Shown here in pieces: positions 39,591 through 63,183 of a stretch of DNA of 64,000 nt. The stretch lies in the NCBI GenBank assembly GCA_023267635.1, contig JAHFMX010000004.1, forward strand, positions 2,837-66,836, given 5' to 3'. Source of the DNA: a bacterium. Its GTDB lineage: Bacteria > Patescibacteriota > Minisyncoccia > Phycocordibacterales > UBA5272. The notes beneath the pieces were generated by a model. It was not told the origin of the DNA, did not search any database, and was given only the letters and a program-made list of their open reading frames with translations. The translations under genes and the position numbers were made by a program. Position 1 is the first letter of the stretch. Every line of letters starts with the position of its first letter.

Positions 39591-39618
39591 AAAAAAGCGC
39601 TCATGGAGCGCTTTTTTG
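39591..39618. terminator. bidirectional terminator after atpB
   Basis: aaaaaaGCGCTCatgGAGCGCttttttg. Confidence 0.6.
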
Positions 39619-39873
39619 TTCGGTCGAGGTCAAAGCCTGTTTTGCAGCAAAGTGTTCAGCCACCAATAATGCGGCCTTCATGAGTTTGCGTGTGGTGCTC
39701 GGTGGTTCATTTTTCCATGTGTAGGGGTAAGGTTCGAGCTCTTCTGCTCCCACAGGAAGCTCTTCGATAACCTTAAATTCTGCCAGCGCGCTGACAGAAA
39801 AGAATGTTCCATCGGGAAGCTTCATGAAGAAGGTTGATCCCGCACAAAACAATTGCATGTCTGAGAGGTTCAT
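39601..39873 (-). CDS. hypothetical protein encoded antisense within the atp cluster
   Basis: Start chosen at MNLSDM with SD ggagaa 5 nt upstream (ORF track used upstream TTG); GC-elevated. Confidence 0.4.
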   Translation of the reverse strand: MNLSDMQLFCAGSTFFMKLPDGTFFSVSALAEFKVIEELPVGAEELEPYPYTWKNEPPSTTRKLMKAALLVAEHFAAKQALTSTEQKSAP

Positions 39874-39985
39874 AACGTTCTCCAAAGGTACTAGGTTCTT
39901 TAAACTGTACGCTTTTATTACTTCCAAGTCAAAGATATTTCATCTGCCTACCCACAGAAGTCAATCTGCACAAAGCAATTTTTTC

Positions 39986-40044: not shown

Positions 40045-40263
40045 ATGACACCAGAAGCAGCAATTTATATCGCAAAGGGAATGTGTATCATCGCCATGAT
40101 CGGTACAGCTATCGGACAGGGATACCTCGTAGGAAAGACTATGGAAGCAATCGGTCGCAACCCAGACATTGAAGGATCACTCTTTTCAAAGATGATCATC
40201 GGTGTTGCCATGACAGAAACAACAGCCATCTTTGCGCTCGTTGCATTCTTCCTCCTTGGTTAA
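40045..40263 (+). CDS. atpE: F0F1 ATP synthase subunit c
   Basis: Two-helix hairpin, GxGxGxG packing, conserved carboxylate region. Confidence 0.85.
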   Translation: MTPEAAIYIAKGMCIIAMIGTAIGQGYLVGKTMEAIGRNPDIEGSLFSKMIIGVAMTETTAIFALVAFFLLG

Positions 40264-40273
40264 TTTTTTCTAG

Positions 40274-40768
40274 ATGGAGCAGATTCTTACCATTTTAGGA
40301 AGTGTTGGGTTCAATTGGCACGTTGCACTAGCAAACTTCATTAACTTTCTCATCATCTTATTCATTTTGAATAAGTTCTTTTTCGGCAAGCTTGGAAAAG
40401 TGATTTCAAATCGTCAGCAAGTAATTGAACGTGGTCTTTCTCAGGCATCTGATGCTGAAAAAGCTCTCGCATCTGCTGAAGACGAGAAGAAACAAATCAT
40501 TCATGAAGCTAAAAAAGAAGGACATGTGATTGTGAGTGAAGCGCAAACACAAGCAGAAAATCTTGCTGCAACAATTAAGAGTGATGCAGAAAAAGAGATA
40601 ACACTACGAACAGAAGCCATGAATCACAAAGAAGCAGAGTTAAAGACAAAGGTGGAAAAAGAGTTCGCTCTTCGTGCACCATCTCTTGTTGCGACGCTCT
40701 ACGCTGAAACACTTAAGAAAAACCTTACAGCAGAGGATAATAATGCGCTTATCGCAAGCATGAAATAG
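40274..40768 (+). CDS. atpF: F0F1 ATP synthase subunit b
   Basis: N-terminal TM then long charged helix; position in operon. Confidence 0.75.
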   Translation: MEQILTILGSVGFNWHVALANFINFLIILFILNKFFFGKLGKVISNRQQVIERGLSQASDAEKALASAEDEKKQIIHEAKKEGHVIVSEAQTQAENLAATIKSDAEKEITLRTEAMNHKEAELKTKVEKEFALRAPSLVATLYAETLKKNLTAEDNNALIASMK

Positions 40769-40772
40769 TTGT

Positions 40773-41120
40773 ATGATTTTGTCACGACAAATTGCAGAGT
40801 TACTGCTTAAGAAGAAGGTTGGGGTGGATGAAGTAACAGAAGCACTGTCTTCGTACGGACTTCTTTCTCTCTTACCCAACATTCTTGATGCAGTTACCAA
40901 ATTAACTCGTGATGAAAAAGAACAAGACACTATTCGCATAGAATCTCCTTTTGAAATAGAAGAGAGTGCGCTCTCTCGAATTAAAAGAATTGTGGGAAAC
41001 GACATGGCGCCCACCGAAGTAACTATCAATAAAAATCTTCTAGCTGGATTCAAAGCACGCTACAAAGGAATGTCATACGATGGATCAGCGGCACGAATTA
41101 TTAAACAATTAACAAAGTAA
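40773..41120 (+). CDS. atpH: F0F1 ATP synthase delta subunit (short, C-terminal OSCP part)
   Basis: 115 aa; position between b and alpha; LLAGFKARYKGMSYDGSAARIIKQL. Confidence 0.6.
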   Translation: MILSRQIAELLLKKKVGVDEVTEALSSYGLLSLLPNILDAVTKLTRDEKEQDTIRIESPFEIEESALSRIKRIVGNDMAPTEVTINKNLLAGFKARYKGMSYDGSAARIIKQLTK

Positions 41121-41125
41121 CCAAC

Positions 41126-42628
41126 ATGTCAGTAGAAAAAATCATCAAGGATCTGGAGAAAAAAATAGAAACACTTTCGACTGAGGTAGAAGTGAATGAA
41201 ATCGGAAGTGTTATTTCTGTCTCTGACGGTATTGCTCGTGTATCTGGCCTTTCAAAGTGTGCGAGTATGGAAGAAGTGACATTTGCTTCAGGGGCTAAAG
41301 GGCTCGCTCTTAACCTCGAATCTGACATGGTTGGTATCGTTATTGTTTCTGGTGCTGAAACGGTTCGTGAGGGCGAAGAAGTGACGCGCACAGGACGCGT
41401 GCTCGCTATTCCTGTAGGAGAATCTCTTCTTGGACGTGTGGTTGATCCTTTGATGAACCCAGTGGATGGTGAAAAGATAACAGGCCTGGACGCAATGGAA
41501 CTTGTAGAGAAGATCGCACCAGGTGTGATGGATCGTGAACCAGTGAATGTTCCTATGCAAACAGGAGTTAAGGCGATTGATGCCATGATTCCAGTTGGAC
41601 GTGGACAGCGTGAACTTATCATTGGTGATCGCCAAACAGGGAAGACAACGATTGCGCTCGATACGATCATTAACCAAAAGGGAACTGGCGTTATTTGTGT
41701 ATATGTTGCGATTAGCCAGAAGGAATCAAAGATTGCTCAGATTGTTGAAAAGTTGAAAGCAGCTGGAGCTATGGAGTACACCGTTGTGGTACTTGCTGGA
41801 GCCTCACACTCTGCAGCGCTATCATACTTGGCACCGTACGCAGGAACTGCCGTTGCTGAATACTTTATGAACAAGCAGAAGGACGTGCTTGTTGTATATG
41901 ATGATCTTTCAAAGCACGCTGTTGCATATCGCGAAATGTCACTTCTTCTTAAGCGCCCACCAGGGCGTGAAGCGTACCCAGGAGATGTATTCTACCTCCA
42001 CTCTAGACTTCTAGAGCGTGCTTGTCGCAGAAATGAGGCCGCAGGAAGTGGTTCTATCACAGCGCTACCAATTATTGAAACTCAGGCGGGAGATGTGTCA
42101 GCGTATATTCCAACAAACGTTATTTCGATTACTGACGGACAGATTTTCTTGGATGCAAACCTTTTCTACAAGGGTATGCGACCAGCGATTGATGTTGGAC
42201 TCTCGGTATCACGTGTGGGATCATCTGCTCAAACAAAAGCGATGAAGAAAAATGCGGGCAAGATGAAACTTGCGATGGCACAGTATCGTGAACTTGAATC
42301 ATTCTCTCAGTTTGATTCTGACTTGGACCAAGATACAAAAAGAACTATTGAACGAGGAAAGAGAACACAGGAAATACTTAAGCAAGCAAACGGTTCACCA
42401 CTTCGTACAGGACTACAAGTTGCGTCAGTGTACGCAGTTAACAATGGCTACCTGGATTCAGTTCATGTAGAACATGTTCAAGGATGGGAAAAAGCTATGC
42501 ACACATACATGCTGTCATCTGGAAAAGAAGTAGTTGAATCTCTCGAAAAGGGTTGGGATGACAAGATAGAGAGTGACCTTAATGCTGCACTCGAAAGTTT
42601 TAAACATGTGCACAGTAATGGTGCGTAA
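41126..42628 (+). CDS. atpA: F0F1 ATP synthase alpha subunit
   Basis: Walker A GDRQTGKT; alpha signature. Confidence 0.9.
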   Translation: MSVEKIIKDLEKKIETLSTEVEVNEIGSVISVSDGIARVSGLSKCASMEEVTFASGAKGLALNLESDMVGIVIVSGAETVREGEEVTRTGRVLAIPVGESLLGRVVDPLMNPVDGEKITGLDAMELVEKIAPGVMDREPVNVPMQTGVKAIDAMIPVGRGQRELIIGDRQTGKTTIALDTIINQKGTGVICVYVAISQKESKIAQIVEKLKAAGAMEYTVVVLAGASHSAALSYLAPYAGTAVAEYFMNKQKDVLVVYDDLSKHAVAYREMSLLLKRPPGREAYPGDVFYLHSRLLERACRRNEAAGSGSITALPIIETQAGDVSAYIPTNVISITDGQIFLDANLFYKGMRPAIDVGLSVSRVGSSAQTKAMKKNAGKMKLAMAQYRELESFSQFDSDLDQDTKRTIERGKRTQEILKQANGSPLRTGLQVASVYAVNNGYLDSVHVEHVQGWEKAMHTYMLSSGKEVVESLEKGWDDKIESDLNAALESFKHVHSNGA

Positions 42629-42757
42629 TAGAGATAAAAATTTCAATTTATAATTTTCAATTTTTAATCAAGTATCAATGTACTAATTAAAAAATTAAGA
42701 ATTAAAACATTCAATAAAAATTAGAAATTGAAAATTAAAAATTAAAGCAAAGCGCAT

Positions 42758-43606
42758 ATGCAGACAAAAGTTATCAAGCAGAAAATAAAGAGCGTTGGAT
42801 CCATCAAGAAAATTACAAAAACGATGGAGATGGTTTCTGCTGCGAAAATGAAGAAAGCAACTGATGGAGCTCACACACTTCGACCATTCCATCAAGAAGC
42901 GCAGGCTATTTTAGAAGATCTTTCACTGGACCCGCTCGCGTCTCATGAGCTTCTTGCTCACAATGGAGTAGAAGAGGAAGTTGTTGTTATTGTTGCATCT
43001 AACAAAGGTCTTTGTGGTAGCTACAATGTGAATATCTATCGTAAGTTACTTGAGGCTTACACAGAAGAAGAGAGAAAGAAATTGAAGATCGTTGCGTTTG
43101 GAAAATACGCAGAAAAAGTAGCAAAGAAACTTCATATTGAAACACTTGCCTCTTTTACTCATCCACAGCTTACAGGCGACGACGCACGAGTCGTTGCTCA
43201 CATGCTTGTTGATTGGTATACACAAAAGAAAATCGGTACAGTGAGAATTCTCTACACTCATTACACCTCAGCTTCTGTGTTTACTCCAACACTACTCCAA
43301 CTTCTCCCATTTTCTTCGGAAGGGAAGCCTGACACACAAGGTGAGCCTCGTTATGACTATGAGCCAGATCAGGAAACAGTGCTTACAACTATCATTCCAA
43401 TGATGATACATAACATCATCTACGGTGCTGTACTTGAAAGTTACGCATCTGAACATTCAGCGCGAATGTTTGCTATGAAATCAGCAACAGATAACGCAAG
43501 CGAGCTTCAGGACGAGCTCAAGTTGTACTATAACCGTGCTCGTCAGGAGCGAGTAACGCAAGAAATTGCTGAAATTACGTCAGGCGCCATGGCGCTGTCA
43601 TCTTAA
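42758..43606 (+). CDS. atpG: F0F1 ATP synthase gamma subunit
   Basis: N/C-terminal coiled helices; ITxEITEI-like C-terminus QEIAEITSGA. Confidence 0.85.
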   Translation: MQTKVIKQKIKSVGSIKKITKTMEMVSAAKMKKATDGAHTLRPFHQEAQAILEDLSLDPLASHELLAHNGVEEEVVVIVASNKGLCGSYNVNIYRKLLEAYTEEERKKLKIVAFGKYAEKVAKKLHIETLASFTHPQLTGDDARVVAHMLVDWYTQKKIGTVRILYTHYTSASVFTPTLLQLLPFSSEGKPDTQGEPRYDYEPDQETVLTTIIPMMIHNIIYGAVLESYASEHSARMFAMKSATDNASELQDELKLYYNRARQERVTQEIAEITSGAMALSS

Positions 43607-43625
43607 AATCAAAATAATGTACTAG

Positions 43626-45498
<1,873 letters not shown>

Positions 45499-45640: not shown

Positions 45641-46438
45641 TTATCTAGGGAGAAAGATAAAGAAGGCGATGATGCCAATAATAATTCTATAGAACCCAAA
45701 CACAACAAACGTGTGTTTTTTAATATAATCAAGGAAGAGTTTAATAACAAAGGTTGCAACAATAAATGAAGAAAGCATTCCGACTAAAAGCGGTGTAAGG
45801 TTTGCTGAGTGAAGTACGACATCCATATTTTTATAGAAAGAATAGAGTGTTGCAGCTGCCATGGTTGGAACAGCTAAAAGGAAAGTAAATTCAGTGAGAA
45901 TCTTTCTGTCGAGTTTCATAAGAAGTCCTCCTATGATTACTGAACCAGAGCGAGACACTCCTGGAATTATGGCTACAATTTGATAGATACCTAGAAGGAA
46001 CGCTTCCTTCATAGATACCTCATGACGAAGTTCTACTATTCCTGCCTCGGTCCATTTTAGGTACATATGTTCCACAAAGAGGATAATAATTCCTCCGATA
46101 AAAAGGGTGACACCAACCAAGAGTGGATTAGTAAGAAGTGGTTTGATGTATGGATAGATAAAAAAGCCTGCTAATCCTGTTGGAATGAATCCCACAGTTA
46201 AGCGTTTAATCATTGATACCGTAAAAATTCTTTTCCAGAACATGTAGAGCACTGCTAAGATGGCACCAAGTTGTATTGCGATTTCAAAAGCGATAAGGAA
46301 ATCAGTCTGAGGGATGTTAAGAAAATGAGAAGCAAGGATGAGGTGTCCTGTTGAAGAGATTGGTAAAAACTCCGCGAGACCCTCAATTATTCCAAGAACA
46401 AGGGCTTGTAAGATAGTCATGTGTGTATAATAACACAT
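45641..46438 (-). CDS. uppP: undecaprenyl-diphosphatase
   Basis: ISSTGHLIL and SRSGSVIIGG motifs. Confidence 0.85.
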   Translation of the reverse strand: MCYYTHMTILQALVLGIIEGLAEFLPISSTGHLILASHFLNIPQTDFLIAFEIAIQLGAILAVLYMFWKRIFTVSMIKRLTVGFIPTGLAGFFIYPYIKPLLTNPLLVGVTLFIGGIIILFVEHMYLKWTEAGIVELRHEVSMKEAFLLGIYQIVAIIPGVSRSGSVIIGGLLMKLDRKILTEFTFLLAVPTMAAATLYSFYKNMDVVLHSANLTPLLVGMLSSFIVATFVIKLFLDYIKKHTFVVFGFYRIIIGIIAFFIFLPR

Positions 46439-49514: not shown

Positions 49515-51449
49515 ATGGAACGTCTGTTTACAGGGGCAATCAGCCTCACTTCTAAGAGAGATGGATATGTACGGGTTACAGAGCTTGAGCACGATGGTGC
49601 GATTTTTGTTGACCATAGTCATCTTGGAACAGCGCTTCACCAAGATATTGTTCAGGTGGAATTACTTGGTAAAAAGCAGAATGTAAAAGGTGAACAAGAA
49701 CTCTACGGAAAAGTATTATCTATTATTGAACGTGGACGCAAAGGATACGCTGGCATCATAGAAGAAGACGCAGGGCATTACTTCCTCGTTCCTCAGGACA
49801 AGAAAATGTACACCGATATCATGATTGGTAAAGATGACCTTAATGGTGCTGAAGTTGGTATGAAGGTTATAGCAAGCATTGACGAATGGACTGATCAAAA
49901 GAAATCTCCAATTGGACGCGTGACGAATGTTCTTGGATATCCAGGAGACAACAATGCAGAAATGTTGGCCTACGCTCTTGAACGTGGTTTTAGTGCTGAA
50001 CATACTGATGCCGTGAATAAAGAAGCTGATGAAATAAAAGCGCGAGGGATTACAGAAGAAGATAAAGCGAATCGAAGAGATTTCAGAACGACTCCAACCT
50101 TTACCATTGACCCAATCGACGCTAAAGACTTCGACGACGCTATCTCATTTAAGAAGCTTGATAATGGACACTATGAAGTTGGTATTCATATTGCTGACGT
50201 ATCGTACTATGTTCGTCCAGGCATGGCACTTGATGAAGAAGGAATCGCTCGCGAGACTTCTGTGTATCTCGTAGACCGTGTAATCCCTATGCTTCCAGAA
50301 GTGCTTTCAAACGATTTGTGTTCTTTGGTACAGGGTGAGGATCGTCTTGTGATGTCTGCGGTGCTTGAGCTTGATGATGAAGGAAAAGTTCATGGAGAAT
50401 GGTTTGGACGCTCTCTTATTAATTCTCATCGAAGATATTCATACGAAGATGCGCAAGTAACGCTCGATACAGGAACAGGAGATTTCTACGAAGAGCTCAC
50501 TATTTTAAATAAGATTGCAAAGAATTTAACAAAAGCACGTTTTGAAGGTGGGGCGCTTTCACTTGAAACTGAAGAGGTTAAATTTAAGTTAGACGAAAAG
50601 GGTGTGCCAATCGATGTGTATGTGAAGTCACGCGGTGATACTCACAAGCTGATTGAAGAGTACATGCTTTTAGCTAACAAGCATGTAAGTAAGTTCATCA
50701 CTGAAAAACAAGAAGAGAAAAACGGACGATCAATCTGTGTGTATCGTATTCACGATAAGCCAGATGCTGACAAGATGCATGATCTTGATCTCTATATTCG
50801 TGGACTCGGGTTCCATGTTCGTTTTCTGGACGGACTCATTCCTTCACAAGACCTCAACGACCTTCTTCGCAAGATGGCAGATAGACCTGAGAAACAACTA
50901 TTGCAAGTTCACATTACTCGATCAATGCAAAAAGCTGTCTATAGTACAAAAAATGTTGGTCACTATGGACTAGCATTTGATTATTATTCTCACTTCACCT
51001 CTCCAATTCGTCGATACCCAGATGTGCTTACACACAGACTCCTTATGCGAGTACTTTCTGAGGATTATCCTAAAGAAGAAGAACGTGGATTGTTTGATTC
51101 ATTGTGTGCTAAGGCAAGTCGTCGTGAAAAAGAAGCATCAGACGCTGAGCGTGGAAGTATTAAGTACAAGCAGGTGGAATATATGTCGTACCGCATTGGG
51201 CAAGAATTCGACGGTATGGTGTCTGGTGTATCAGAATGGGGGATTTATGTAGAAGAGAAGAAAAGTAAGTGTGAAGGCATGATTCGCTTGCGTGATCTCG
51301 GGGATGATTTCTATAACTTTGATCAAAAGGGTGGACGAGTGTTTGGAGAGCGAACAGGAATGGAGTGGAAAATTGGAACACCAGTACGAATGCGTGTAAA
51401 GAACGCAAATCTTGATTTGCGAGTGATTGATTACGAACTAGTACAGTAG
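49515..51449 (+). CDS. rnr: ribonuclease R (RNB family 3'-5' exoribonuclease)
   Basis: Cold-shock/OB N-terminus; RNB catalytic region DPIDAKDFDDAIS; C-terminal S1. Confidence 0.85.
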   Translation: MERLFTGAISLTSKRDGYVRVTELEHDGAIFVDHSHLGTALHQDIVQVELLGKKQNVKGEQELYGKVLSIIERGRKGYAGIIEEDAGHYFLVPQDKKMYTDIMIGKDDLNGAEVGMKVIASIDEWTDQKKSPIGRVTNVLGYPGDNNAEMLAYALERGFSAEHTDAVNKEADEIKARGITEEDKANRRDFRTTPTFTIDPIDAKDFDDAISFKKLDNGHYEVGIHIADVSYYVRPGMALDEEGIARETSVYLVDRVIPMLPEVLSNDLCSLVQGEDRLVMSAVLELDDEGKVHGEWFGRSLINSHRRYSYEDAQVTLDTGTGDFYEELTILNKIAKNLTKARFEGGALSLETEEVKFKLDEKGVPIDVYVKSRGDTHKLIEEYMLLANKHVSKFITEKQEEKNGRSICVYRIHDKPDADKMHDLDLYIRGLGFHVRFLDGLIPSQDLNDLLRKMADRPEKQLLQVHITRSMQKAVYSTKNVGHYGLAFDYYSHFTSPIRRYPDVLTHRLLMRVLSEDYPKEEERGLFDSLCAKASRREKEASDAERGSIKYKQVEYMSYRIGQEFDGMVSGVSEWGIYVEEKKSKCEGMIRLRDLGDDFYNFDQKGGRVFGERTGMEWKIGTPVRMRVKNANLDLRVIDYELVQ

Positions 51450-51493
51450 TTCTGTATTCGTGCTAGAATAAATTCCTAGAAAGGAGGTGTGCT

Positions 51494-51787
51494 ATGACCA
51501 CCTTAAGCCGTAGATTGCCCTTTGTGGCGCCGATAGAGAAGCCTCCATCCTTTTCTCATGATGAAATAAGAGTTTTCACAGCTTCATTTTGGAGCGAAGC
51601 AGATGAATATGTTGCGGGCAAGTTAGGGGATGCACCGAAGTGCCCCTCCTTGTCGGTAACTGCGCCGAAGTGTGATTGCCCGAAAACTCATGACGGCATG
51701 TTCAAAAAAGAACATGAGTGCAAACGTGAAGCTGTGTGTTGTGTTCGTATAACCCTTTTTCCCAAAGGGGTGCCATTTCATGAGTAA
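51494..51787 (+). CDS. small Cys-rich hypothetical protein
   Basis: Strong SD aaaggagg 8 nt upstream; 7 Cys (CPSLSVTAPKCDCP...HECKREAVCC); followed by terminator. Confidence 0.4.
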   Translation: MTTLSRRLPFVAPIEKPPSFSHDEIRVFTASFWSEADEYVAGKLGDAPKCPSLSVTAPKCDCPKTHDGMFKKEHECKREAVCCVRITLFPKGVPFHE

Positions 51788-51798: not shown

Positions 51799-51850
51799 AA
51801 GACCCTACATATTCCAAGAGGTTGAATATGTAGGGTCTTTTTCTTGTTTT
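51799..51850 (+). terminator. rho-independent terminator
   Basis: AAGACCCTACATATtccaagaggttgaATATGTAGGGTCTTtttcttgtttttt. Confidence 0.65.
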
Positions 51851-51863
51851 TTATTGGGGTTTA

Positions 51864-51872
51864 TGGTAGAAT
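51864..51872 (+). promoter_or_regulatory. extended -10 box TGGTAGAAT, leaderless rpsP
   Basis: ATG at 51880 lies 7 nt after the box. Confidence 0.45.
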
Positions 51873-51879: not shown

Positions 51880-52179
51880 ATGTTAAAAATCAGACTACAG
51901 CGTACAGGACGCAAGAACGACCCTCATTTCCGTCTTATCGTTACAGAAAGTACCCTTAAGGCAAAAACATCTCAATTTACTGAGATTGTTGGAACGTATA
52001 ATGTTAAAGCTGGTATCTTTGAAGCTAAAGGAGACCGCGTAAAGCATTGGATGTCAGTTGGAGCACAGGTTACTCCAACGGTTCACAACCTCCTTATCTC
52101 AAAGGGAGTTATCGAAGGAAAGAAGATCAACGTTCTTCCAAAGAAGAAGCCAGTTGTTAAAGTAGCAAAGGCTGCATAA
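51880..52179 (+). CDS. rpsP: 30S ribosomal protein S16
   Basis: MLKIRLQRTGRKNDPHFRLIV; start moved to internal ATG (ORF track began at a TTG). Confidence 0.85.
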   Translation: MLKIRLQRTGRKNDPHFRLIVTESTLKAKTSQFTEIVGTYNVKAGIFEAKGDRVKHWMSVGAQVTPTVHNLLISKGVIEGKKINVLPKKKPVVKVAKAA

Positions 52180-52791: not shown

Positions 52792-52950
52792 TTAAAAAAG
52801 TAGGGATACAGCAACTGTTGTAACCACTGCTGCGGCAATAGCGCCTATGGCCACAGAACTTGTTATTGGCGAAAACAAAATAGCGGCCAGACCAATCCAG
52901 ATGCCTGCAATCGCGATGCCTTTCCCGATATTTTTTCCAGCACTGTCCAT
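52792..52950 (-). CDS. small Gly/Ala-rich membrane protein (52 aa, YeaQ/YmgE-like), below ORF-track cutoff
   Basis: Manual translation MDSAGKNIGKGIAIAGIWIGLAAILFSPITSSVAIGAIAAAVVTTVAVSLLF*; SD aggag 8 nt upstream. Confidence 0.4.
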   Translation of the reverse strand: MDSAGKNIGKGIAIAGIWIGLAAILFSPITSSVAIGAIAAAVVTTVAVSLLF

Positions 52951-52995
52951 AAAGAGCTCCTGTCAGTTGTAAGTATTGTTACAGTACATCAAATA

Positions 52996-53004
52996 TGGTA
53001 TAAT
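52996..53004 (+). promoter_or_regulatory. extended -10 box TGGTATAAT, leaderless trmD
   Basis: ATG at 53012 lies 7 nt after the box. Confidence 0.5.
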
Positions 53005-53906: not shown

Positions 53907-53915
53907 TGGTAGAAT
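53907..53915 (+). promoter_or_regulatory. extended -10 box TGGTAGAAT upstream of tRNA-Thr
   Basis: 25 nt before tRNA start. Confidence 0.4.
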
Positions 53916-54202: not shown

Positions 54203-54299
54203 CCTCTTGTAGTCGATTCCCGCTCTAAATTAAGATTCGACAAAACCCTTAATTTTGAGTAGTGTAAGACTTAATTGTTCAACTACTACGGGAGGTTAT

Positions 54300-54650
54300 A
54301 TGGCAGAAGATGCCGAGCTTGGCCCGTCGTTAAGGCGGTTGCTCAAGTGGATTACGAAGAAATACAAAATAGAAAAAGAAATTGCTAAAGAGCATCTTGG
54401 CTTTAATCCACCATCCATCGAAATGTTCATGGTGCTCTCAAGTGCCATGAGGCGCAGGATTTTTAAGGAAGGGAAAAATCCCACCTTCGATGAGCTTATT
54501 TCAAAGCTAGTTGATTCTGGATATGTTCATCGGTTCACTGGTTACCATGATCCAAATCATCCAGAAATCAGACTATCAAAAGAAAGCACTTTCTATTGTC
54601 TTACAAAAAAAGGTGAGGAAGCAAAAATAATAGTGGTGCGAAAACGCTAA
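54300..54650 (+). CDS. small hypothetical protein (possible winged-helix)
   Basis: Start at MAEDAEL with SD gggagg 4 nt upstream. Confidence 0.4.
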   Translation: MAEDAELGPSLRRLLKWITKKYKIEKEIAKEHLGFNPPSIEMFMVLSSAMRRRIFKEGKNPTFDELISKLVDSGYVHRFTGYHDPNHPEIRLSKESTFYCLTKKGEEAKIIVVRKR

Positions 54651-54696: not shown

Positions 54697-55578
54697 ATGG
54701 AAAATAATAATCTTATTGATGCTGAAATCGCTGAACTGGAAAATCTCATGAATGGGGTTGATTTTTGGAATGATAAAGAGAAGGCTCAGGACACTATCAA
54801 GAAGATAAAAGAACTAAAAGATAGACGTGATGGAGTTGGAGCTCTCGATAAAGGAAATGCAATTCTTACACTCTTAGCTGGAGCTGGAGGAGATGATAGC
54901 GAAGACTTCACTCGCATGTTGTTTGAAATGTATGACGCGTACTGTAAACGAAAAGGATATTCATATAGTGTTCTTCATGATAATAAAAATGAGCGTGGAG
55001 GATTTCGTAATCTTACGATAGAAATTGATGGCAAGAACGCCTATGGAAATTTGAAACAAGAATCAGGAGTACACAGACTCGTACGCATCTCACCATTTAA
55101 TGCACAAGCAAAGCGCCACACATCATTTGCTCTTGTGGAAGTGTTGCCTGTAATTCCAGCTGTTGAACAAACACCAATCGCTCCAGAAGATATTCGTATC
55201 GAAACATCTAAGTCATCTGGCCCTGGTGGGCAAAATGTGAACAAGCGAGAAACAGCAGTTCGTATTGTGCACATTCCTACAAATATCGCAGTTCATGTAG
55301 CAACAGAACGAGAACAAGAGCGCAACAAACAAAAAGCACTCGAAATTTTGGCTGCGAAATTGTACAAGATACAAGAAGAAGAGCGACAAGCAGAAATTGA
55401 AGGAAGGCAGATTAGTAAGACGATGGAAATAGAATGGGGGAATCAGATTCGCTCGTATGTTCTCCATCCGTATAAGATGGTGAAAGATCACAGAACAGAT
55501 GTGGAAACGAGTAACATCGAAGCGGTTCTTGAAAAAGGAGAGATCGATGAATTCATTGAAGCTGAAAAGAAGCTGTAA
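54697..55578 (+). CDS. prfB: peptide chain release factor 2 (N-terminally short, no programmed frameshift)
   Basis: GGQ (SGPGGQNVNK) and RF2-specific SPF (RISPFNAQ) motifs; 293 aa. Confidence 0.8.
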   Translation: MENNNLIDAEIAELENLMNGVDFWNDKEKAQDTIKKIKELKDRRDGVGALDKGNAILTLLAGAGGDDSEDFTRMLFEMYDAYCKRKGYSYSVLHDNKNERGGFRNLTIEIDGKNAYGNLKQESGVHRLVRISPFNAQAKRHTSFALVEVLPVIPAVEQTPIAPEDIRIETSKSSGPGGQNVNKRETAVRIVHIPTNIAVHVATEREQERNKQKALEILAAKLYKIQEEERQAEIEGRQISKTMEIEWGNQIRSYVLHPYKMVKDHRTDVETSNIEAVLEKGEIDEFIEAEKKL

Positions 55579-55667: not shown

Positions 55668-55706
55668 CCCATGTCGGGTCAGTACTATGAGGCAAGGAGA
55701 AATGAA

Positions 55707-56390
55707 ATGCAAAACATAATCGAACCCCGTCACGTGCTTGAACTTCAGGCAAAGCTGGGAGGTCAGGTCAATTGGTCCGAATTCAAGCCTACGGATATCC
55801 AGCCGATTATTGAATCGCCACGTCTCTCGGGTGTCCACTTTGAAGAGTTCATCCGCCAAGGTGGAAGAATGTCGCTTGAAGGGATACCAATTAAAGTCTT
55901 GAAAAGCTGGACTATCACCCCTGGCCCTACTCTTACGTGGGAGACCTGGGTGAGGTTTGCAAAAGAGGACGTTGGTAATTCAACTATTCTCTCAGGCTCT
56001 TACGACGGAATGGTGTTGTCGGATACCTTGCTTAAACCAAAAAATTTCACGATGAAGCCGAAGGTTCAGGTGCACATGCTCGAAGTTACCAGAAAGGAAG
56101 GCGTTCTGACCAAAAGGATGCTTGAACTCTTCGAACTACTCAACATGTACCCAAGCACAGTTCCTGAGGTGTTTACCGTCCTCAACAGCTTTGCCCCAGA
56201 GCTGCCCAAAGGTGCCGTCCTTCTCAACGCCTGCAAAAACGAAATCTACCAAAATGTGAAAAACATGTTGATAGAAGCGCAAGAGGGAGAGCAGAGGAGG
56301 CGCTATAGGTTTTCGGTTATCGGTGGGGATGTAGAGGACCTTGGTTGCTGGCATGACCATATGTATTACTTTGCTACGTCCTACGACTAA
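55707..56390 (+). CDS. hypothetical protein, GC-elevated, SD-bearing
   Basis: In-frame ATG with SD aaggag 7 nt upstream (ORF track used ATG 55671). Confidence 0.5.
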   Translation: MQNIIEPRHVLELQAKLGGQVNWSEFKPTDIQPIIESPRLSGVHFEEFIRQGGRMSLEGIPIKVLKSWTITPGPTLTWETWVRFAKEDVGNSTILSGSYDGMVLSDTLLKPKNFTMKPKVQVHMLEVTRKEGVLTKRMLELFELLNMYPSTVPEVFTVLNSFAPELPKGAVLLNACKNEIYQNVKNMLIEAQEGEQRRRYRFSVIGGDVEDLGCWHDHMYYFATSYD

Positions 56391-58156: not shown

Positions 58157-58221
58157 AATATTTGAATGTTTTGGCGATTTTGCCATTTTGAATCAATGCG
58201 CACAGCGCAAAGGAGAAAACT

Positions 58222-58626
58222 ATGGAACTGAACCAAGCGAAAATTGAGGTTTGCTTTCCTGGCACATTGCTGAAGATTTTTTGGCTAATTCTCCACCCGA
58301 TTTTGTGGGTGGGGGCGCTGATCATGGTGAGTGCTTACACATCACCCGTCAGCAAAATCATCTTCCTGGTTGCGGGACTGGTTTCTTTTGCCGCCTTGCT
58401 AGGAGTTTTCTTCGGAAGCTCATCCACTGTTCGCAAAGAATCTGGGTATGTCGCTGGCACCGTTGCTGCTGTGGCCGCCATGGTTTTGAGTTTTAGCGCG
58501 GCCACCTATTCAGCAACCGACAACTTCCCAGGCGAAAGCCTGATTGACAAAAGGGCAGCTGCCATACAGCAAGCCCCTGGTGGACAGTTTCGTGGTCAAG
58601 GTGCCACCGGCTCCATCAAACCCTGA
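58222..58626 (+). CDS. small membrane protein, GC-elevated
   Basis: 134 aa, 3 TM, Ala/Gly-rich tail. Confidence 0.5.
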   Translation: MELNQAKIEVCFPGTLLKIFWLILHPILWVGALIMVSAYTSPVSKIIFLVAGLVSFAALLGVFFGSSSTVRKESGYVAGTVAAVAAMVLSFSAATYSATDNFPGESLIDKRAAAIQQAPGGQFRGQGATGSIKP

Positions 58627-58757: not shown

Positions 58758-60413
58758 ATGACGCAGAAAACCGCTCTCGATATTCTTAAACTTGGACATA
58801 CGGTATTTCTCACTGGTGCAGCGGGAGCTGGTAAAAGTTACGCTCTGCGTGAATATATTACGTACCTTCGTAAACACGGTATTAAATTCGCTGTTACCGC
58901 TTCCACTGGAATTGCTTCAACACACATCGGTGGAACAACCATTCACGCATGGAGTGGTCTTGGTATTAAACAAAAACTCACCGCGTATGATTTGGATGAA
59001 TTAGAAGAGAAACCAAACGTGTACAAACGATGGAATGATACACAAGTGCTCATCATCGATGAAATCTCGATGCTTCACGCTTCACTTGTGGATATGTTGG
59101 ATAAAGCAGGGAAACATCTACGAAGAAGTGATAAACCGTTCGGTGGACTACAAGTAGTATTCACGGGGGATTTCTTTCAGCTTCCACCAGTAGTACGTAA
59201 TGGAAATGAATATGAAAGTACGGACGTGTTCGCGTTTATGTCTAAAGCATGGAAAGAAGCCAAGCCTGTAGTCTGCTATTTAACAGAACAGTTCCGCCAA
59301 GAAGATGATACGCTCACGAATATTTTAAATGCTATCCGTTCTGGTGAAGTAGAAGAGGATCATTACCTGACACTTAAAGAATCGAGTAACACGCCACACA
59401 CGGATGATCATATAAAACTCTACACGCACAATGAGAATGTGGATCTGATTAATAAGAAAGCCTTTGACGCGCTCGAGGGTGAAGTGAAGAGATTCGACAT
59501 GGTAACAAAAGGGAAAGGTCCTGTACTCGCGTCATTGAAGAATAATTGTTTGGCGGATGAAATATTGGAACTCAAAATCGGAGCGAAAGTTATTTGTATC
59601 AAGAATGATGCGGAGCGAAAGTATGTGAATGGCTCTATGGGAATCGTGGTTGATTTTGAAAAGGATAACAGCCCAGTGATTGCACTTCAAACAGGCAAAC
59701 GAGTGGTTATGAAAGCCGACACTTGGCGTGTGGAAGAGGACGGAAAAGTAAAAGCTGAGATATCGCAGTTACCTATTAAATTAGCCTGGGCAATCACGGT
59801 TCACAAGAGCCAAGGAATGACCCTTGATAGGGCACAAATTGACCTCAGCCGTGCGTTTGCTTCAGGGCAGGGATATGTTGCTCTTTCTCGATTAAAGAGC
59901 ATGGAAGGGCTGCATTTGGTTGGCTTCAATCCACAAGCACTTCAAATCTCGGAAGAGGTTCGAGAAGCAGATTATACTTTCCGCAGCAAGAGTGAACAGG
60001 CAGAATATGCCCTTGATAAATATACTGAAGACGATTTGAAAGTGCTCCATGAAAAGTTCCTCACGGAGAAAGGAGGAACGCTCGTAGAGTTGAGTGATTC
60101 TGAGGCGGATGAGATTCAAGAGAAGACACTCACCCATACGGTAACGCAAGAGATGTTAAAGATCGGCCTTACACTTCCAGAAATTGCAGAGCAGAGAAAT
60201 CTCTCAGTGGATACTATTATTGGACATATTGAGAAGCTGGTAGAAATGAAAGAAGAAGTGGTGTTGGACAAAGTGTTACCTCCTAAAAAAGATGTGACCG
60301 CAATCAAGAAAGCTTTTAAGACTCTAGAGACCACAAAGCTCACCCCGGTCTTCGATGAACTGGCTGGAAAATACACCTTTCACCAAATACGTTTGGTTCG
60401 AGCCACATTATAG
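58758..60413 (+). CDS. Pif1/RecD-family ATP-dependent DNA helicase with C-terminal HTH
   Basis: Walker A GAAGAGKSY; motif II LIIDEISM; SF1B motifs TVHKSQGMT; C-terminal helix-turn-helix region. Confidence 0.8.
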   Translation: MTQKTALDILKLGHTVFLTGAAGAGKSYALREYITYLRKHGIKFAVTASTGIASTHIGGTTIHAWSGLGIKQKLTAYDLDELEEKPNVYKRWNDTQVLIIDEISMLHASLVDMLDKAGKHLRRSDKPFGGLQVVFTGDFFQLPPVVRNGNEYESTDVFAFMSKAWKEAKPVVCYLTEQFRQEDDTLTNILNAIRSGEVEEDHYLTLKESSNTPHTDDHIKLYTHNENVDLINKKAFDALEGEVKRFDMVTKGKGPVLASLKNNCLADEILELKIGAKVICIKNDAERKYVNGSMGIVVDFEKDNSPVIALQTGKRVVMKADTWRVEEDGKVKAEISQLPIKLAWAITVHKSQGMTLDRAQIDLSRAFASGQGYVALSRLKSMEGLHLVGFNPQALQISEEVREADYTFRSKSEQAEYALDKYTEDDLKVLHEKFLTEKGGTLVELSDSEADEIQEKTLTHTVTQEMLKIGLTLPEIAEQRNLSVDTIIGHIEKLVEMKEEVVLDKVLPPKKDVTAIKKAFKTLETTKLTPVFDELAGKYTFHQIRLVRATL

Positions 60414-60439
60414 ATAATTAAGAAGTAATACAAATACAA

Positions 60440-60468
60440 AAGCACCCATAAAAGGGTGCTTTTGTATT
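60440..60468 (+). terminator. rho-independent terminator
   Basis: aaaGCACCCataaaaGGGTGCttttgtattt. Confidence 0.6.
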
Positions 60469-60471
60469 TGC

Positions 60472-60542
60472 TGGGGAACAGGGACTCGAACCCCAATACC
60501 ATCCTCCAGAGGGATGTGTCCTACCATTAGACGATTCCCCAA
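60472..60542 (-). tRNA. tRNA-Gln (CTG)
   Basis: Minus strand: U1-A72 acceptor TGGGGAA/TTCCCCA, short D-loop, anticodon stem CATCC/GGATG with loop CTCTGGA. Confidence 0.8.
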
Positions 60543-60682
60543 TATATGAGATTTTTTACCTCAATATGCACAACATAATACTATATTATAGAGCTTTTGG
60601 GAATCCCTCTTCTTCAAGGTGTTTTTGTTTTATATAAAATAGTTTTTAAGATAAACCACACCTTGTGCTATTGTTATGACAT

Positions 60683-61105
60683 ATGGAAAAACTAAAAAGT
60701 AGATTACAGGTGCTTCTTGGTCTCTCATTATTTTTTCCTGTTGTTATGCAGGCACTTTTTGATAAAGAAACAAGTGGGGTAAATCATCTTATTTTACAGT
60801 GGAGCACCGTAATTGCTGTCCTAATTGTTAATTATTTAATTATTGAGTACTTTACTCCGAAATTCTCAAAGAAGGTGGAGAAAATTCTAGACAGGGTTAT
60901 AGGTATAAACATTTTACTGTTTGTTCCAGTAATCATGATTTTAGCAACTAATCCTGTAAATATCGCTGGACTGGCTCGTGTCGGTCTAACTTTAAGTGTC
61001 TGGGGGATAATAACTTTACCCATAATTTTGTTAGTCTCCATGATTTTATATTTTGCAGTAAACGTATGGGTTCCTTATTTGGAGAAGAAAATAGGGTCTA
61101 TTTAA
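60683..61105 (+). CDS. hypothetical polytopic membrane protein (low-GC region)
   Basis: 140 aa, 4 hydrophobic helices. Confidence 0.5.
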   Translation: MEKLKSRLQVLLGLSLFFPVVMQALFDKETSGVNHLILQWSTVIAVLIVNYLIIEYFTPKFSKKVEKILDRVIGINILLFVPVIMILATNPVNIAGLARVGLTLSVWGIITLPIILLVSMILYFAVNVWVPYLEKKIGSI

Positions 61106-61173
61106 TTTCCATCTTGGTTGCATATAACACAACGTTTACTTGCTTTTGACTAGATTAGGCGTAGAATTGAGTC

Positions 61174-63183
61174 ATGATTTCGAATATTGCTGGGTATCAC
61201 ACAAAAGAAGAATGGTTTCTAGGGAAGGGTTCTTTTGGCTCAGTTTACAGAGCTGAAAAAGACGGCAAGTCATACGCAATTAAAATATTTCAGACAGAGT
61301 TTCTTAAGGATGAATATAAAAAGTTCTTAGATAGAGAAGTTGATGCTTTAAGGAAAATTGATCATCCCCAGGTTGTAAAATTTTACGAATCTGGTATTTT
61401 TTCAGATAAAGGATTCGATTATTTCTATATAGTTATGGATTTCATCGAAGGGAAGAAACTTTCTACTTATGTTGGAAGTGGAGACGAGAAGCTCATAGTG
61501 GGAATTATTGAATCTCTTCTTGTGCCCCTTGAAGCTATTCATGCTGGCGGGATACTTCACAGAGATCTGAAACCAGACAACATCATCATTGATCAAAAGG
61601 GAACACCAATTATTCTGGATTTTGGTTTATCTAAAATAATTGATTACACATCAATTATTCAAACAGGAGAATTTGCTGGGACATTCTATTTCATGTCTCC
61701 TGAGCAAATAGTAGATAGTAAAAATATAGATGCTCGTTCTGATTATTTTGCAGTAGGTGTAATTCTCTACCAGCTTCTTACGGGGTTATTGCCGTTCGAT
61801 GCGCCAAATATTCCCGCGTTAATCGAAGAGATACAAAAGAGGTATCCGAAAGCCCCATCTGATATTAATCCAAATATTAGCAATAAAACCGAGAACGTAA
61901 TATTAAAACTTCTTGAGAAACAGCCTTATTCTCGCTATCAATCGACCGCTGAGATTATTTCAGCATTTAGCGAGGAGATAATTTTAAGAAAAGCAAAGCT
62001 AGATTTAAGAATTCGTAATTATGTAAGGGTTCTTAATAACGAAAAAACTGTTTTTAAAAAAGCATCAGAGGCTGGTTTGATTAGCGAAGTTTTATATCCA
62101 GCTAATTTGTTTGCAAGCTATAAACCCACTGTTAAGGTCATACAGGATTCTAGACTTCCTTTCACTACAGATCCGTCCACTAATAGACTTAACTACCCAG
62201 CTTTTTCAAGTTCGCCTACACTACAAGAGCTACCATACTCATCGGGCAGCGACACAACCCCACTTCAGAAAAAAGATTTTCATTCTATTACACAAATTCA
62301 AGAATATGTAAAAAAGGTGATTGACCATCAAATTATGTATGGAGTTAATGAACTCGCAGCCCCTTTTTTCTTTGCAAAAGATCCATCGGATGAATGGTAT
62401 TCTATTAATCTTAAACTCCTCAAAGAGTCTATAGATTATAGAGATAAGAATCATTCTGAATTACCTCTCTGGGCGGGAATCTGTATGAATGTAGACGGTT
62501 GGCATGACGATGATATAAAAAACGAAATACTTAATAAGTATGTTAAGAATGCCCCAGATGGTTTTTTTGTATATGGTGATCCTGTCAGTAACAGTGCTAA
62601 TTTAGCTCAAGTTTTTCATTACTCAGACTTCTTAATAAAGTTACAAAAAGCATCTAATGTTCCTGTTATAACAGCAAGAGTGAACGGTTTAGGGCTAGTT
62701 TTGTTATGTCTAGGTTTATCTGGGATGTCGTGCGGTATTTCTGGGTTAGACAGTTTTCAAGAGGGACTGCTTTCAGATCAAAAAGAAGATACATATGGTA
62801 TGGACCCTAGATACTATATTCCTGAATTAATGTCTCTAGTAACTTTAAAAAAAGGCATTACAACAAAACTTAAAGATATTAATAAATCTAGTATTTCAGA
62901 AGCGTTGAAATGCCCATGTCCGTATTGTAAAGATATTTTAGAAGAAGAAGTTTTAATCTCTGAGCGAGTCAAGATGCATTTCCTTTATCGGAGAAAAGAA
63001 GAAATGGATACCATCAATTCACTTAATGAAGAAGAGAGACTTAAATATATAGAAGAGAGACTTGCTAAAGCTCTAGAGTATAAAAAAACACTTACAAAAG
63101 AAGGTTTTAAAATTAGTAGCGATTTTTCTCATTTAAATACTTGGAAATCTTTAATAGAGGAGTTTAAGAAATTAGGAGTGTAG
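61174..63183 (+). CDS. Ser/Thr protein kinase with large uncharacterised C-terminal domain
   Basis: Kinase subdomains: GKGSFGSVY, AIK, HRDLKPDNIII, DFGLSK, SPE; C-terminal ~400 aa with CPCPYC...H motif; 669 aa; low GC. Confidence 0.75.
   Translation: MISNIAGYHTKEEWFLGKGSFGSVYRAEKDGKSYAIKIFQTEFLKDEYKKFLDREVDALRKIDHPQVVKFYESGIFSDKGFDYFYIVMDFIEGKKLSTYVGSGDEKLIVGIIESLLVPLEAIHAGGILHRDLKPDNIIIDQKGTPIILDFGLSKIIDYTSIIQTGEFAGTFYFMSPEQIVDSKNIDARSDYFAVGVILYQLLTGLLPFDAPNIPALIEEIQKRYPKAPSDINPNISNKTENVILKLLEKQPYSRYQSTAEIISAFSEEIILRKAKLDLRIRNYVRVLNNEKTVFKKASEAGLISEVLYPANLFASYKPTVKVIQDSRLPFTTDPSTNRLNYPAFSSSPTLQELPYSSGSDTTPLQKKDFHSITQIQEYVKKVIDHQIMYGVNELAAPFFFAKDPSDEWYSINLKLLKESIDYRDKNHSELPLWAGICMNVDGWHDDDIKNEILNKYVKNAPDGFFVYGDPVSNSANLAQVFHYSDFLIKLQKASNVPVITARVNGLGLVLLCLGLSGMSCGISGLDSFQEGLLSDQKEDTYGMDPRYYIPELMSLVTLKKGITTKLKDINKSSISEALKCPCPYCKDILEEEVLISERVKMHFLYRRKEEMDTINSLNEEERLKYIEERLAKALEYKKTLTKEGFKISSDFSHLNTWKSLIEEFKKLGV

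Follow-up and report, generated by a model that had tools for sequence, protein, structure and literature searches.

Predicted Shine-Dalgarno sites of small orphan genes in a Paceibacteria genome fragment whose core genes start without Shine-Dalgarno sequences

The rnr-rpsP interval and its small cysteine-rich gene

We describe the translation start signals in a 64-kb stretch of contig JAHFMX010000004.1 (the window; GC content about 0.42) and, in particular, the element at positions 51477-51496, which lies between the RNase R gene rnr and the ribosomal protein gene rpsP. This element reads tagAAAGGAGGTGtgctATG and holds a 10-nt perfect match to the complement of the canonical anti-Shine-Dalgarno (anti-SD) sequence, 4 nt before the ATG codon of a 97-amino-acid (97-aa) open reading frame (ORF); its duplex with ACCUCCUUU has a predicted free energy (ΔG) of -13.2 kcal/mol. 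The textbook Shine-Dalgarno (SD) sequence that an earlier inspection of the DNA letters (the sequence-only reading) had proposed at 51494 is thus present, and the element is the SD plus ATG, and hence the predicted ribosome-binding site, of a conserved gene for a cysteine-rich protein. Strong SD sequences of this kind mark a small group of orphan genes in the window, while the core genes start without them. As the overall explanation we consider it likely that SD-independent initiation is the default in this lineage and that an orphan minority is SD-led.

A search with RNase R (49515-51449), taking one genome per species, returned matches only from metagenome-assembled genomes of the candidate phyla radiation (CPR; Patescibacteria), which are labelled Paceibacterota, Nomurabacteria, Parcubacteria, or (mis)labelled Saccharibacteria; the best are 78-82% identical. 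Since all RNase R relatives are Paceibacterota, Nomurabacteria or other CPR genomes, sequence kinship places the source of the window in the Paceibacteria, as a 'Nomurabacteria'-like and predictably ultra-small bacterium of the CPR/Parcubacteria type. Much closer relatives were reached through homologues of the small ORFs, namely GCA_021733405.1 (locus L086), GCA_964348715.1 (loci L088 and L095) and several metagenome contigs; the housekeeping proteins of the window are 89-99% identical to theirs.

Downstream of the rnr stop codon (51447-51449), the focal promoter, the SD, the ORF, a hairpin and the rpsP promoter follow in order (Table 1). A TGnTAnAAT promoter motif 24-26 nt before the ATG codon is kept in the orthologous loci L090, L091, L094, L095 and L008, and the string tAGAAAGGAG is invariant in six orthologous loci, in which the spacer between it and the start codon varies in sequence and length. 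The hairpin, a predicted intrinsic terminator, has a fold energy of -24.2 kcal/mol (z = -3.9), and in L091 its stem is, judged by eye, seemingly kept despite changes on both arms. The whole unit (promoter, tAGAAAGGAG, variable spacer, ORF and hairpin) recurs in L090, L091, L094 and L095 and, more diverged, in L008. With a promoter, an SD and a terminator of its own, the gene is predicted to be monocistronic.

The 97-aa protein belongs to a family of about ten sequences among 1.8-5.8 billion proteins, and its gene is always positioned between rnr and rpsP. Four cysteine residues are invariant in this family, together with F32, E35, P51, D61, V84 and R85. The protein has no family match in Pfam, NCBIfam, PHROGs or PADLOC; a signal peptide and a hydrophobic segment were looked for and neither was found, and an AlphaFold2 model built from eight sequences was poor (predicted local distance difference test score 51.7) and unusable. 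Our guess is a small protein that binds metal or contains disulfide bonds.

Relatives differ in what lies in the rnr-rpsP gap, which makes this gap a variable hotspot. In the loci L006-L013 and L017 (e.g., L009:11957-17272 and L010:11942-20152) it measures between 150 bp and 8 kb and contains histidine-kinase-like and response-regulator (two-component) genes, GC-rich segments or other SD-led small ORFs.

Start signals of the core genes

Genes were called with a 3-periodic Markov model trained on long ORFs, from which the non-overlapping high scorers were kept, yielding 55 genes. Six starts were moved from the first start codon to a better in-frame ATG a few codons further on, and five of these moved starts (rpsP, trmD, 1721-3196, 11869-13386 and 45641-46420) lie directly after a -10 box. 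The identities of leuS, trmD, MnmA, peroxiredoxin, PAP2, release factor, FtsE and Pif1 helicase were checked with Pfam, and the remaining ones were taken from precomputed domains of identical or orthologous products. For start signals, the comparison set consisted of 69 related Paceibacteria loci (about 1.3 Mb) with 704 ATG-initiated typical genes.

An extended -10 box (TGnTAnnnT) that ends 6-10 nt before the ATG codon precedes 19 of about 50 typical genes of the window, and a plain TAnnnT box is found at a like position in about eight more. The arrangement TG.TA...T, 6-nt spacer and ATG occurs ten times in the window, as opposed to 2.1 +/- 1.4 times in dinucleotide shuffles. In the 69 loci, the extended -10 box lies at 6-10 nt in 140 of the 704 typical genes and at 1-5 nt in just one, so that the onset is sharp; intragenic ATG decoys carry the box at about 0.05% per position. 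Taken as a whole, the leaderless signature is present in these loci at 23.5% of the typical genes versus 0.28% of the decoys, a difference of about 80-fold. All leaderless-type examples in the window are ATG-initiated, in a scan that scored ATG starts and not GTG or TTG. The anti-SD pairing energy of leaderless-type genes is near 0, and a spacer of 6-10 nt is physically too short to accommodate a leader signal. With an extended -10 box 6-10 nt from the ATG codon, transcription would begin at the start codon or within about 4 nt of it, and the resulting leaderless mRNAs would be bound directly by ribosomes together with initiator tRNA.

The leaderless-type starts named in the sequence-only reading (rpsP, trmD, 29758, 24370 and 21691; Table 1) are correct to the base. 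For leuS, which it had also listed, the best box, TGATAGTAT, ends 13 nt upstream of the ATG codon (25689), and this gene would have an SD-less leader of about 6 nt rather than a leaderless mRNA. In the leucyl-tRNA synthetase (25689-28577) itself, a NUDIX domain (residues 384-509) follows the editing domain as an insertion. The gene at 28624-29652 encodes a 342-aa protein with an N-terminal Sigma70 region-4 domain and a HARE-HTH domain; its promoter box is TGGTAGAAT, and its leader, about 14 nt long, contains no SD. Two tRNA genes, tRNA-Leu(taa) and tRNA-Thr, share the extended -10 box TGnTAGAAT (8838-8846 and 53907-53915), placed 17 and 25 nt before the mature 5' ends, and their precursors would have short leaders only. 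An apparent second class of promoter-to-ATG spacing at 26 nt (10 observed versus 2.5) was rejected as chance, with mostly non-genic ATG codons in it.

The claim of the sequence-only reading that housekeeping genes lack an SD holds for the window and beyond. No correctly spaced SD was found among the about 50 typical genes of the window; the sole strong match is an AAGGAG abutting the ATG codon of 1721-3196 (ΔG -7.0 kcal/mol), inside a leaderless-type spacer. Across the 69 loci, an SD of at least 6 nt lies in reach of the start codon in 2.6% of the typical genes versus 2.4% of the decoy windows. Complementarity to the anti-SD is even depleted at typical starts, where the mean duplex energy is -0.58 kcal/mol versus -2.37 kcal/mol at intragenic ATGs.

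Two initiation styles had been proposed for the window, and both exist; a further one, SD-free initiation inside operons, had been missed. Since operon-internal core genes also lack an SD, this genome is predicted to have a third mode, SD-independent initiation on leadered or internal cistrons. The regions upstream of 215 operon-internal genes contain 40-59% A and 7-24% G (7-15% in the last 12 nt), with T at position -1. Many internal cistrons are separated by gaps of 3-12 nt or overlap (the 40045-45498 operon and the 22249-23638 cluster); the former is, by its first-pass label, presumably an ATP-synthase operon. Downstream cistrons, and the few short-leader genes, would thus start from A/U-rich, G-poor, weakly structured regions, and the very short gaps and overlaps would fit translational coupling or standby binding. 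In the 69 loci, T occupies position -1 in about 53-55% of the typical genes, and internal genes are preceded by maxima of A at -6 and -10; these may reflect a Kozak-like or start-element preference.

The Shine-Dalgarno-led genes: inventory, coding status, and origin

Twelve SD-led ORFs are present in the 64 kb, with an SD spacing of 3-7 nt in all of them and of 6 nt in eight. The seven SD sites pointed out in the sequence-only reading all exist, although the one of 39601 is a weak GGAG at 6 nt and the gene placed at 14083 really starts at 14085. Five ORFs add to that list: 6497-7243 on the minus strand, 7384-8226, 21234-21521 with a GTG start, 58222-58626, and 52792-52950 on the minus strand. 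For most of the twelve, an own -10 box and a short leader (roughly 10-20 nt) with a strong SD can be identified, and similar units of -10 box, short SD-bearing leader and small ORF recur in other Paceibacteria loci. Nine SD-led ORFs have a ΔG of -8.3 kcal/mol or lower, as does 7384 when scored from the upstream ATG 7378; 39601 reaches -6.4 kcal/mol, and scoring at the ORF's own ATG left out 52792, 54300 and 55707. Where they were scored at their own start, strong SD-led ORFs range from -8.3 to -13.2 kcal/mol, and all typical genes lie at -7.0 kcal/mol or above. The comparison of pairing energies over start codons that had been suggested with the first reading therefore gives a clean split in the window, 39601 excepted. 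A further strong AAGGAGGTG at 25537-25545 on the minus strand, between a DUF5671 gene and leuS, is followed by neither a start codon nor an ORF; read on the plus strand, the site is an anti-SD-like CACCTCCTT that closely precedes the leuS promoter.

Table 1. Start signals, genes and further elements of the window.
Feature	Position	Strand	Details
Extended -10 promoter TGCTAGAAT, focal gene	51461-51469	+	24 nt before the focal ATG
SD AAAGGAGGTG, focal gene	51480-51489	+	4 nt before ATG 51494; AAAGGAGG at 51480-51487
Gene of the 97-aa Cys-rich protein	51494-51787	+	motif CPS...CDCPKT...C...C(I/C)VR..LFPKG
Predicted intrinsic terminator	51799-51853	+	16-bp perfect stem plus T-run; inverted repeat 51799-51814 / 51824-51839
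-10 box TGGTAGAAT of rpsP	51864-51872	+	7-nt spacer, ATG 51880; spacing identical in L095 and L008
rpsP (ribosomal protein S16)	51880-52179	+	Ribosomal_S16 Pfam match on identical product; no SD, ΔG -3.3
-10 box TGGTATAAT of trmD	52996-53004	+	7-nt spacer, ATG 53012; Pfam tRNA_m1G_MT
-10 box TGGTATACT, predicted leaderless-type promoter	29743-29751	+	6-nt spacer, ATG 29758
-10 box TGGTAAAAT, predicted leaderless-type promoter	24355-24363	+	6-nt spacer, ATG 24370
-10 box TGATATACT of the 21691 gene			6-nt spacer
Seven-gene operon, putative ATP-synthase	40045-45498	+	internal genes without SD, ΔG -2.2 to +2.3; gaps of 4-88 nt or 8-nt overlap
AAGGAG (14073-14078) and 146-aa signal-peptide protein (sec146)	14073-14525	+	ATG 14085; SD spacing 6; GC 0.62
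AAGGAGGT (14630-14637) and 70-aa ORF	14630-14854	+	ATG 14642; SD spacing 4; GC 0.40
AAGGAG (11325-11330) and 316-aa ORF (p316)	10368-11330	-	ORF 10368-11318; SD 6 nt before ATG; GC 0.51
AAAGGGGG (7250-7257) and 248-aa membrane ORF (p248)	6497-7257	-	SD 6 nt before ATG
GGAGG (7373-7377) and 280-aa membrane ORF (p280)	7373-8226	+	ATG 7384
AAGGAG (21221-21226) and 95-aa ORF	21221-21521	+	GTG 21234; adjoins tRNA-Tyr; unique to this genome
Weak GGAG (39880-39883) and 90-aa ORF	39601-39883	-	ORF 39601-39873; SD 6 nt before ATG
AGGAG (52957-52961) and 52-aa two-helix membrane ORF	52792-52950	-	SD 6 nt before ATG
GGGAGGT (54290-54296) and 116-aa ORF	54290-54650	+	ATG 54300; SD spacing 3; adjoins tRNA-Thr; GC 0.40
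AAGGAG (55694-55699) and 227-aa ORF	55694-56390	+	ATG 55707; SD spacing 7
AAAGGAG (58209-58215) and 134-aa ORF, four hydrophobic helices	58209-58626	+	ATG 58222; GC 0.52

Could the SD-led ORFs be spurious reading frames with chance SD matches, or the GC-rich pieces assembly chimeras? Our own coding model scores these ORFs low, a plain sequence count finds 143 strong SD 6-mers in the window, and the fetched loci contain no protein homologue of 21234 or 54300, both of which are candidate genes. Yet eight of the 71 gap ORFs of the window are SD-led versus 1.7 expected from decoys (binomial p = 2.8e-4), and over all loci the SD-led gap ORFs are longer than the other gap ORFs (median 109 versus 72 aa, p = 7e-7) and GC-richer too. 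Public data call all ten SD-led ORFs that were looked up as genes with exactly these starts. They form conserved protein families, with invariant cysteine residues in the family of 51494; there are about ten homologues each for 14085 and 51494, and three for 55707. Gene order agrees between independent assemblies, which stem from several samples and include a 614-kb contig, and the ratio of nonsynonymous to synonymous divergence (dN/dS) is well under 1 for five of the genes. The artefact explanation is largely refuted already, and we find it barely credible.

In codon alignments, these five SD-led genes have dN/dS values of 0.16-0.48 versus 0.02-0.09 for neighbours (IF-2, ClpB, SOD, an aminotransferase and others), and their synonymous divergence (dS) is 0.30-0.73 versus 0.39-0.94 for flanking housekeeping genes. 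Because these dN/dS values are low and dS is like that of the neighbours, the SD-led genes appear from the alignments to be translated, to be under relaxed purifying selection and to diverge in step with the genome. With tblastn, orthologues of nine of the 12 ORFs were found in the fetched relatives; syntenic orthologues with the SD kept are present in L086, L088, L090, L091, L094, L095 and L096. For nine genes, in up to six genomes, the SD motif is kept in orthologues while the leader varies.

The individual cases are consistent with this picture. The gene sec146 has syntenic orthologues in L086 and L088 that keep the SD caAGGAGa (dS 0.45-0.73, dN/dS 0.34-0.48), and in the three genomes (14085-14525, L086:6001-6444 and L088:10001-10360) it has a GC content of 0.61-0.62 and a GC content at third codon positions (GC3) of 0.66-0.73, in genomes with a GC content of 0.42-0.44. 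The GC content is this steady although the orthologues differ at 30-39% of their amino acids; the high GC of sec146 is maintained, not decaying. The neighbouring 70-aa ORF at 14642 keeps cacAAGGAGGT in L086 and L088 (dN/dS 0.20-0.35). The L086 orthologue of p316 is 79% identical (dN/dS 0.18), while its L088 homologue is highly diverged with an unalignable N-terminus, yet keeps AAGGAGAT. In L088, the p248 orthologue shares 86% identity and an unchanged leader (dN/dS 0.29), and that of p280 shares 90% identity and keeps the SD (dN/dS 0.16). The 52-aa ORF at 52792 has a 77% identical orthologue in L095 behind the same acAGGAGctcttt leader (acAGGAGc), and 58222 has one there that is 62% identical behind an identical 50-nt leader. 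For 55707, the L095 orthologue is 46% identical behind an unchanged leader, and the L096 orthologue is 69% identical with GGAG. A 49% identical homologue of 39601 in L094 has the same ttGGAGAAc leader. At the spot of 54300, L095, L096 and L008 carry a different SD-led ORF of 99-106 aa behind a homologous leader.

The SD-led group differs from the typical genes in composition. Its GC content is 0.476 versus 0.412 (p = 6e-5; elevated in ten of the twelve), its GC3 0.473 versus 0.339 (p = 4e-7), and the first 45 nt fold with -8.3 versus -3.1 kcal/mol (p = 1.4e-5), the starts being GC-richer. The genes had been called small, which is apt for the group (median 125 versus 252 aa) but not for 10368 (316 aa) and 55707 (227 aa). 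Pfam, PHROGs and PADLOC gave no match for the ten SD-led proteins searched, and NCBIfam a single match far below threshold. The proposed enrichment for secreted, membrane and Cys-rich proteins has to be abandoned: a hydrophobic segment is present in five of the 12 SD-led proteins versus 19 of 50 typical ones, which is not significant (Fisher p = 1.0), and the only Cys-rich protein among them is that of 51494.

These features bear on the suggestion of the sequence-only reading that the cohort was horizontally acquired. In its strongest form, the SD-led ORFs would be freshly foreign and would still carry the ribosome-binding site and GC content of a donor. Their atypical composition (GC up to 0.62 versus 0.41), the lack of protein-family matches and the variability of some of their positions accord with this; several adjoin tRNA genes, gene content at these spots differs between close relatives (e.g., an extra SD-led 211-aa ORF in L095), and on the borders of 10368-11318 there are a second copy of a tRNA-Leu 5' fragment and a 14-nt repeat. 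Likewise, 51494, 54255, 55671, 58222 and 39601 have no tblastn match in L006-L013, whose RNase R is about 80% identical, though L008 carries a diverged positional homologue of 51494; a strain-specific reading of these null results was dropped once the closer L086, L088 and L095 were compared. Recent transfer does not fit with the orthologues at the same places in L086, L088, L095 and L096 (the 21234 and 54300 ORFs excepted), nor with a dS equal to that of the flanking housekeeping genes, which indicates that the SD-led genes co-diverged with the genome. The GC content of sec146 has persisted through substantial protein divergence, the identifiable promoters are of the native TGnTAnAAT or (TGn)TAnnnT type, and for three genes, searches of as many as 5.8 billion proteins revealed no donor homologue. 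Beside the SD-led ORFs, neither an integrase nor a transposase was noticed, without a systematic search; the only integrase lies beyond the right end of the window. We therefore consider recent transfer unlikely. What stands is that the cohort is compositionally distinct: the SD-led genes are, as judged from these comparisons, lineage-restricted and fast-evolving and have passed by vertical descent within the genus. A foreign origin is suggested by base composition, by orphan status, by the neighbouring tRNA genes and by the turnover seen among close relatives; equal dS, conserved synteny and native-type promoters indicate that any transfer predates the divergence of these genomes. The composition of the cohort thus probably reflects a foreign origin that predates the genus, and such an ancient transfer probably belongs to the best explanation.

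Near 10368-11318, a truncated second copy of the tRNA-Leu(tag) 5' end and its -10 box (taaatatGCCCGGGTGGC) lies 134 nt upstream of the gene itself (10115-10132 / 10249-10266), and a 14-nt repeat containing AAGGAGATTG is present on both sides of the SD-led ORF (10156-10169 / 11321-11334); these repeats may be an integration or rearrangement scar. Nothing comparable was seen when border repeats were looked for around 14085, 51494 and 58222.

Other parts of the window deserve mention. The low-GC segment (0.29-0.37) at 60400-64000 and L098:11156-16296 encodes a Ser/Thr protein kinase (61174-63183), orphan genes and, just beyond the end of the window, an rve-type integrase; its genes make no use of SD sequences, and it is probably a mobile island. 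The peptide-chain release factor at 54697-55578 is short (293 aa), matches only positions 97-194 of the PCRF profile and thus lacks most of the usual N-terminal domain. On the minus strand, a 120-aa ORF at 36767-37129 (GC 0.52, GC3 0.60) has no SD and no -10 box near its start; it has no homologue in the fetched loci, is not among the twelve SD-led ORFs and is a candidate gene at most. A scan of the whole window with Rfam at gathering threshold gave nothing beyond its seven tRNA genes, which rules out structured RNAs of that collection in the GC-rich gaps.

Anti-Shine-Dalgarno pairing and comparison with known systems

The SD variants AAAGGAG, AAGGAGGT, GGAGGTG and GGGAGGT are different registers of one template, AAAGGAGGTG, and matches to this template reach 9-10 nt here and in other Paceibacteria loci. 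Because such registers fit pairing to a CACCUCCUUU tail, we infer that the lineage keeps a canonical anti-SD. Alternatively, the anti-SD might have been lost, and the AAGGAGG-like purine motif might be a protein or small-RNA site or a promoter-proximal element. The loss of the anti-SD in many Parcubacteria (Tsurumaki et al., 2022; PMC9297842) and the SD-free core genes speak for this, as does the leader AGAAAGGAG, whose conservation goes beyond the needs of a minimal SD. Its weaknesses are that the motifs lie at the canonical 3-7 nt from start codons, that they are kept while spacer sequence and length vary, and that a shift of register is expected of pairing to the 16S tail, not of a fixed protein site. 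Moreover, GGAGG and AGGAG are specifically underrepresented within 1.0 Mb of coding sequence, at 0.81x and 0.83x the synonymous-shuffle expectation, whereas GAGAG and GGAGA are not, in a test whose control motif set overlapped the SD motifs, so that the pentamer comparison alone is usable; as support for an anti-SD this depletion is weak, and it could be codon-pair bias. On balance, a function of the motifs other than ribosome binding is in our view very improbable.

In the mechanism that we favour, the ribosome would retain a canonical anti-SD that pairs with the SD of the orphan class on short leaders, and these genes would depend on the SD because their sequence cannot use the unstructured or the leaderless route. 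This need is suggested by the more structured first 45 nt and the GC-richer starts of the orphan class, which is a correlation only. A different proposal would be that the SD-led genes form a native, specialised translational regulon, translated, for example, only by those ribosomes whose anti-SD is exposed, as happens with rpsU of Flavobacterium. It would fit such a regulon that SD sequences mark just a few units, which form a coherent monocistronic set and have conserved leaders, that core translation is SD-independent as in Bacteroidota, and that bS21 is often absent or altered in Parcubacteria (PMC9297842). The SD-led proteins, however, are unrelated orphans with no sign of co-regulation or shared function and include no ribosomal protein or translation factor, and regulation alone does not explain the differences in composition; we judge the regulon highly improbable.

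A default of SD-independent initiation with an SD-led orphan minority thus remains our preferred explanation. Several points weigh against it. The leaderless mRNAs of promoter-proximal core genes are predicted by promoter geometry alone. Gene starts come from our own simple caller together with public calls, and the SD-led set is partly defined by picking the SD-bearing start. The 21234 ORF, with no orthologue in any fetched locus, has the least secure coding status of the twelve, and two SD-led ORFs, 14642 and 54300, have an ordinary GC content of 0.40 within the normal range of the genome, so that the label GC-rich, given earlier to the whole set, describes the group and not each member. Variable genes with known domains (PMSR and DUF2238) in relatives have leaderless-type starts, for which reason we rejected the notion that accessory genes as such use SD sequences; SD tracks GC-rich orphan genes instead. 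Causality could run either way, structure requiring the SD or foreign origin having brought it. The 16S rRNA 3' end is absent from the window and from all 99 fetched loci, and extending the contig rightward yielded ribosomal proteins S9 and L13 and the integrase, with no rRNA. An anti-SD motif is reported for only 48% of Parcubacteria 16S genes, and it has been suggested that the SD helix does not form in some of these bacteria (Tsurumaki et al., 2022; PMC9297842). Finally, the basis of the analysis is 64 kb plus homologous fragments and not a complete genome.

The study just cited concerns the same broad lineage and shows that Parcubacteria translation can do without an SD helix; it examined 16S 3' ends, whereas we looked at mRNA start signals and leaderless promoters. 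In contrast to the loss of the anti-SD in a subgroup, the conserved and correctly spaced SD sequences imply, if read as pairing sites, that the anti-SD is retained in the present lineage.

Mixed leaderless and SD-led initiation is known from the 'group C' genomes of GeneMarkS-2 (Mycobacterium, Streptomyces and Deinococcus), in which leaderless genes are defined by the geometry of a -10 promoter near the start codon (Lomsadze et al., 2018; PMC6028130). Group C resembles the window in having a second gene class with an SD at about the same distance, so that a dual start model is needed, and in that atypical genes of deviant GC content are handled as a separate class. Leadered and internal genes of group C generally use SD sequences, whereas internal and leadered core genes in the window and the 69 loci show them at or below background level, and in 64 kb only a dozen orphan genes use an SD. 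The CPR phylum does not occur in the searched text of that paper (PMC6028130). Another category, group B, comprises SD-poor genomes whose starts are A-rich (Bacteroidota). The lineage studied here combines group C behaviour of promoter-proximal genes with internal genes like those of group B or X, and with SD sequences only in orphans.

Bacteroidota resemble the window in that their core genes lack an SD and have A-rich, G-poor upstream regions, while a small minority carries a strong SD; they differ in that they are not dominated by leaderless promoters, a type present in the window lineage, and in that their SD-led genes include ribosomal protein genes, as opposed to the orphans found here. 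In Bacteroidota, the anti-SD is sequestered by bS21, bS18 and bS6, and ribosomal protein genes are among the SD-led genes. Flavobacterium johnsoniae reportedly translates in an SD-poor manner, with a few SD-led genes such as rpsU. With classical islets of horizontal gene transfer and tRNA-adjacent orphans, the SD-led cohort shares deviant GC and GC3, homologues in a narrow clade and, in part, tRNA-adjacent and variable positions; unlike these, it has no mobility gene noticed next to it, its dS matches that of the neighbours, and its genes keep their position and predicted ribosome-binding site throughout the genus.

Leaderless promoters, dual start models and atypical gene classes are already established, so that our observations refine known biology and do not introduce a new mechanism. 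A more far-reaching version, in which Paceibacteria core translation does without any SD pairing and the anti-SD survives only for a small orphan set with fast turnover, strikes us as quite unlikely; in that version the orphans may be host-interaction or foreign-derived proteins, and SD pairing would be a dedicated channel for accessory genes. If, on the other hand, the 16S rRNA of the genus lacks the anti-SD, the conserved AAGGAGG leaders would act by a mechanism other than 16S pairing. The findings bear on the reported loss of the anti-SD in many Parcubacteria.

The CPR represents a large, uncultured share of bacterial diversity whose gene-expression signals are almost undescribed; no paper on leaderless mRNAs in CPR bacteria was found in open-access full text. 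For gene calling, start models built around a ribosome-binding site can put starts in the wrong place in such lineages, and the longest-ORF rule places rpsP and trmD on upstream TTG codons. In these genomes, a strong SD is a practical marker of lineage-specific, fast-evolving genes. The genes flagged by an SD are natural candidates for host-interaction functions.

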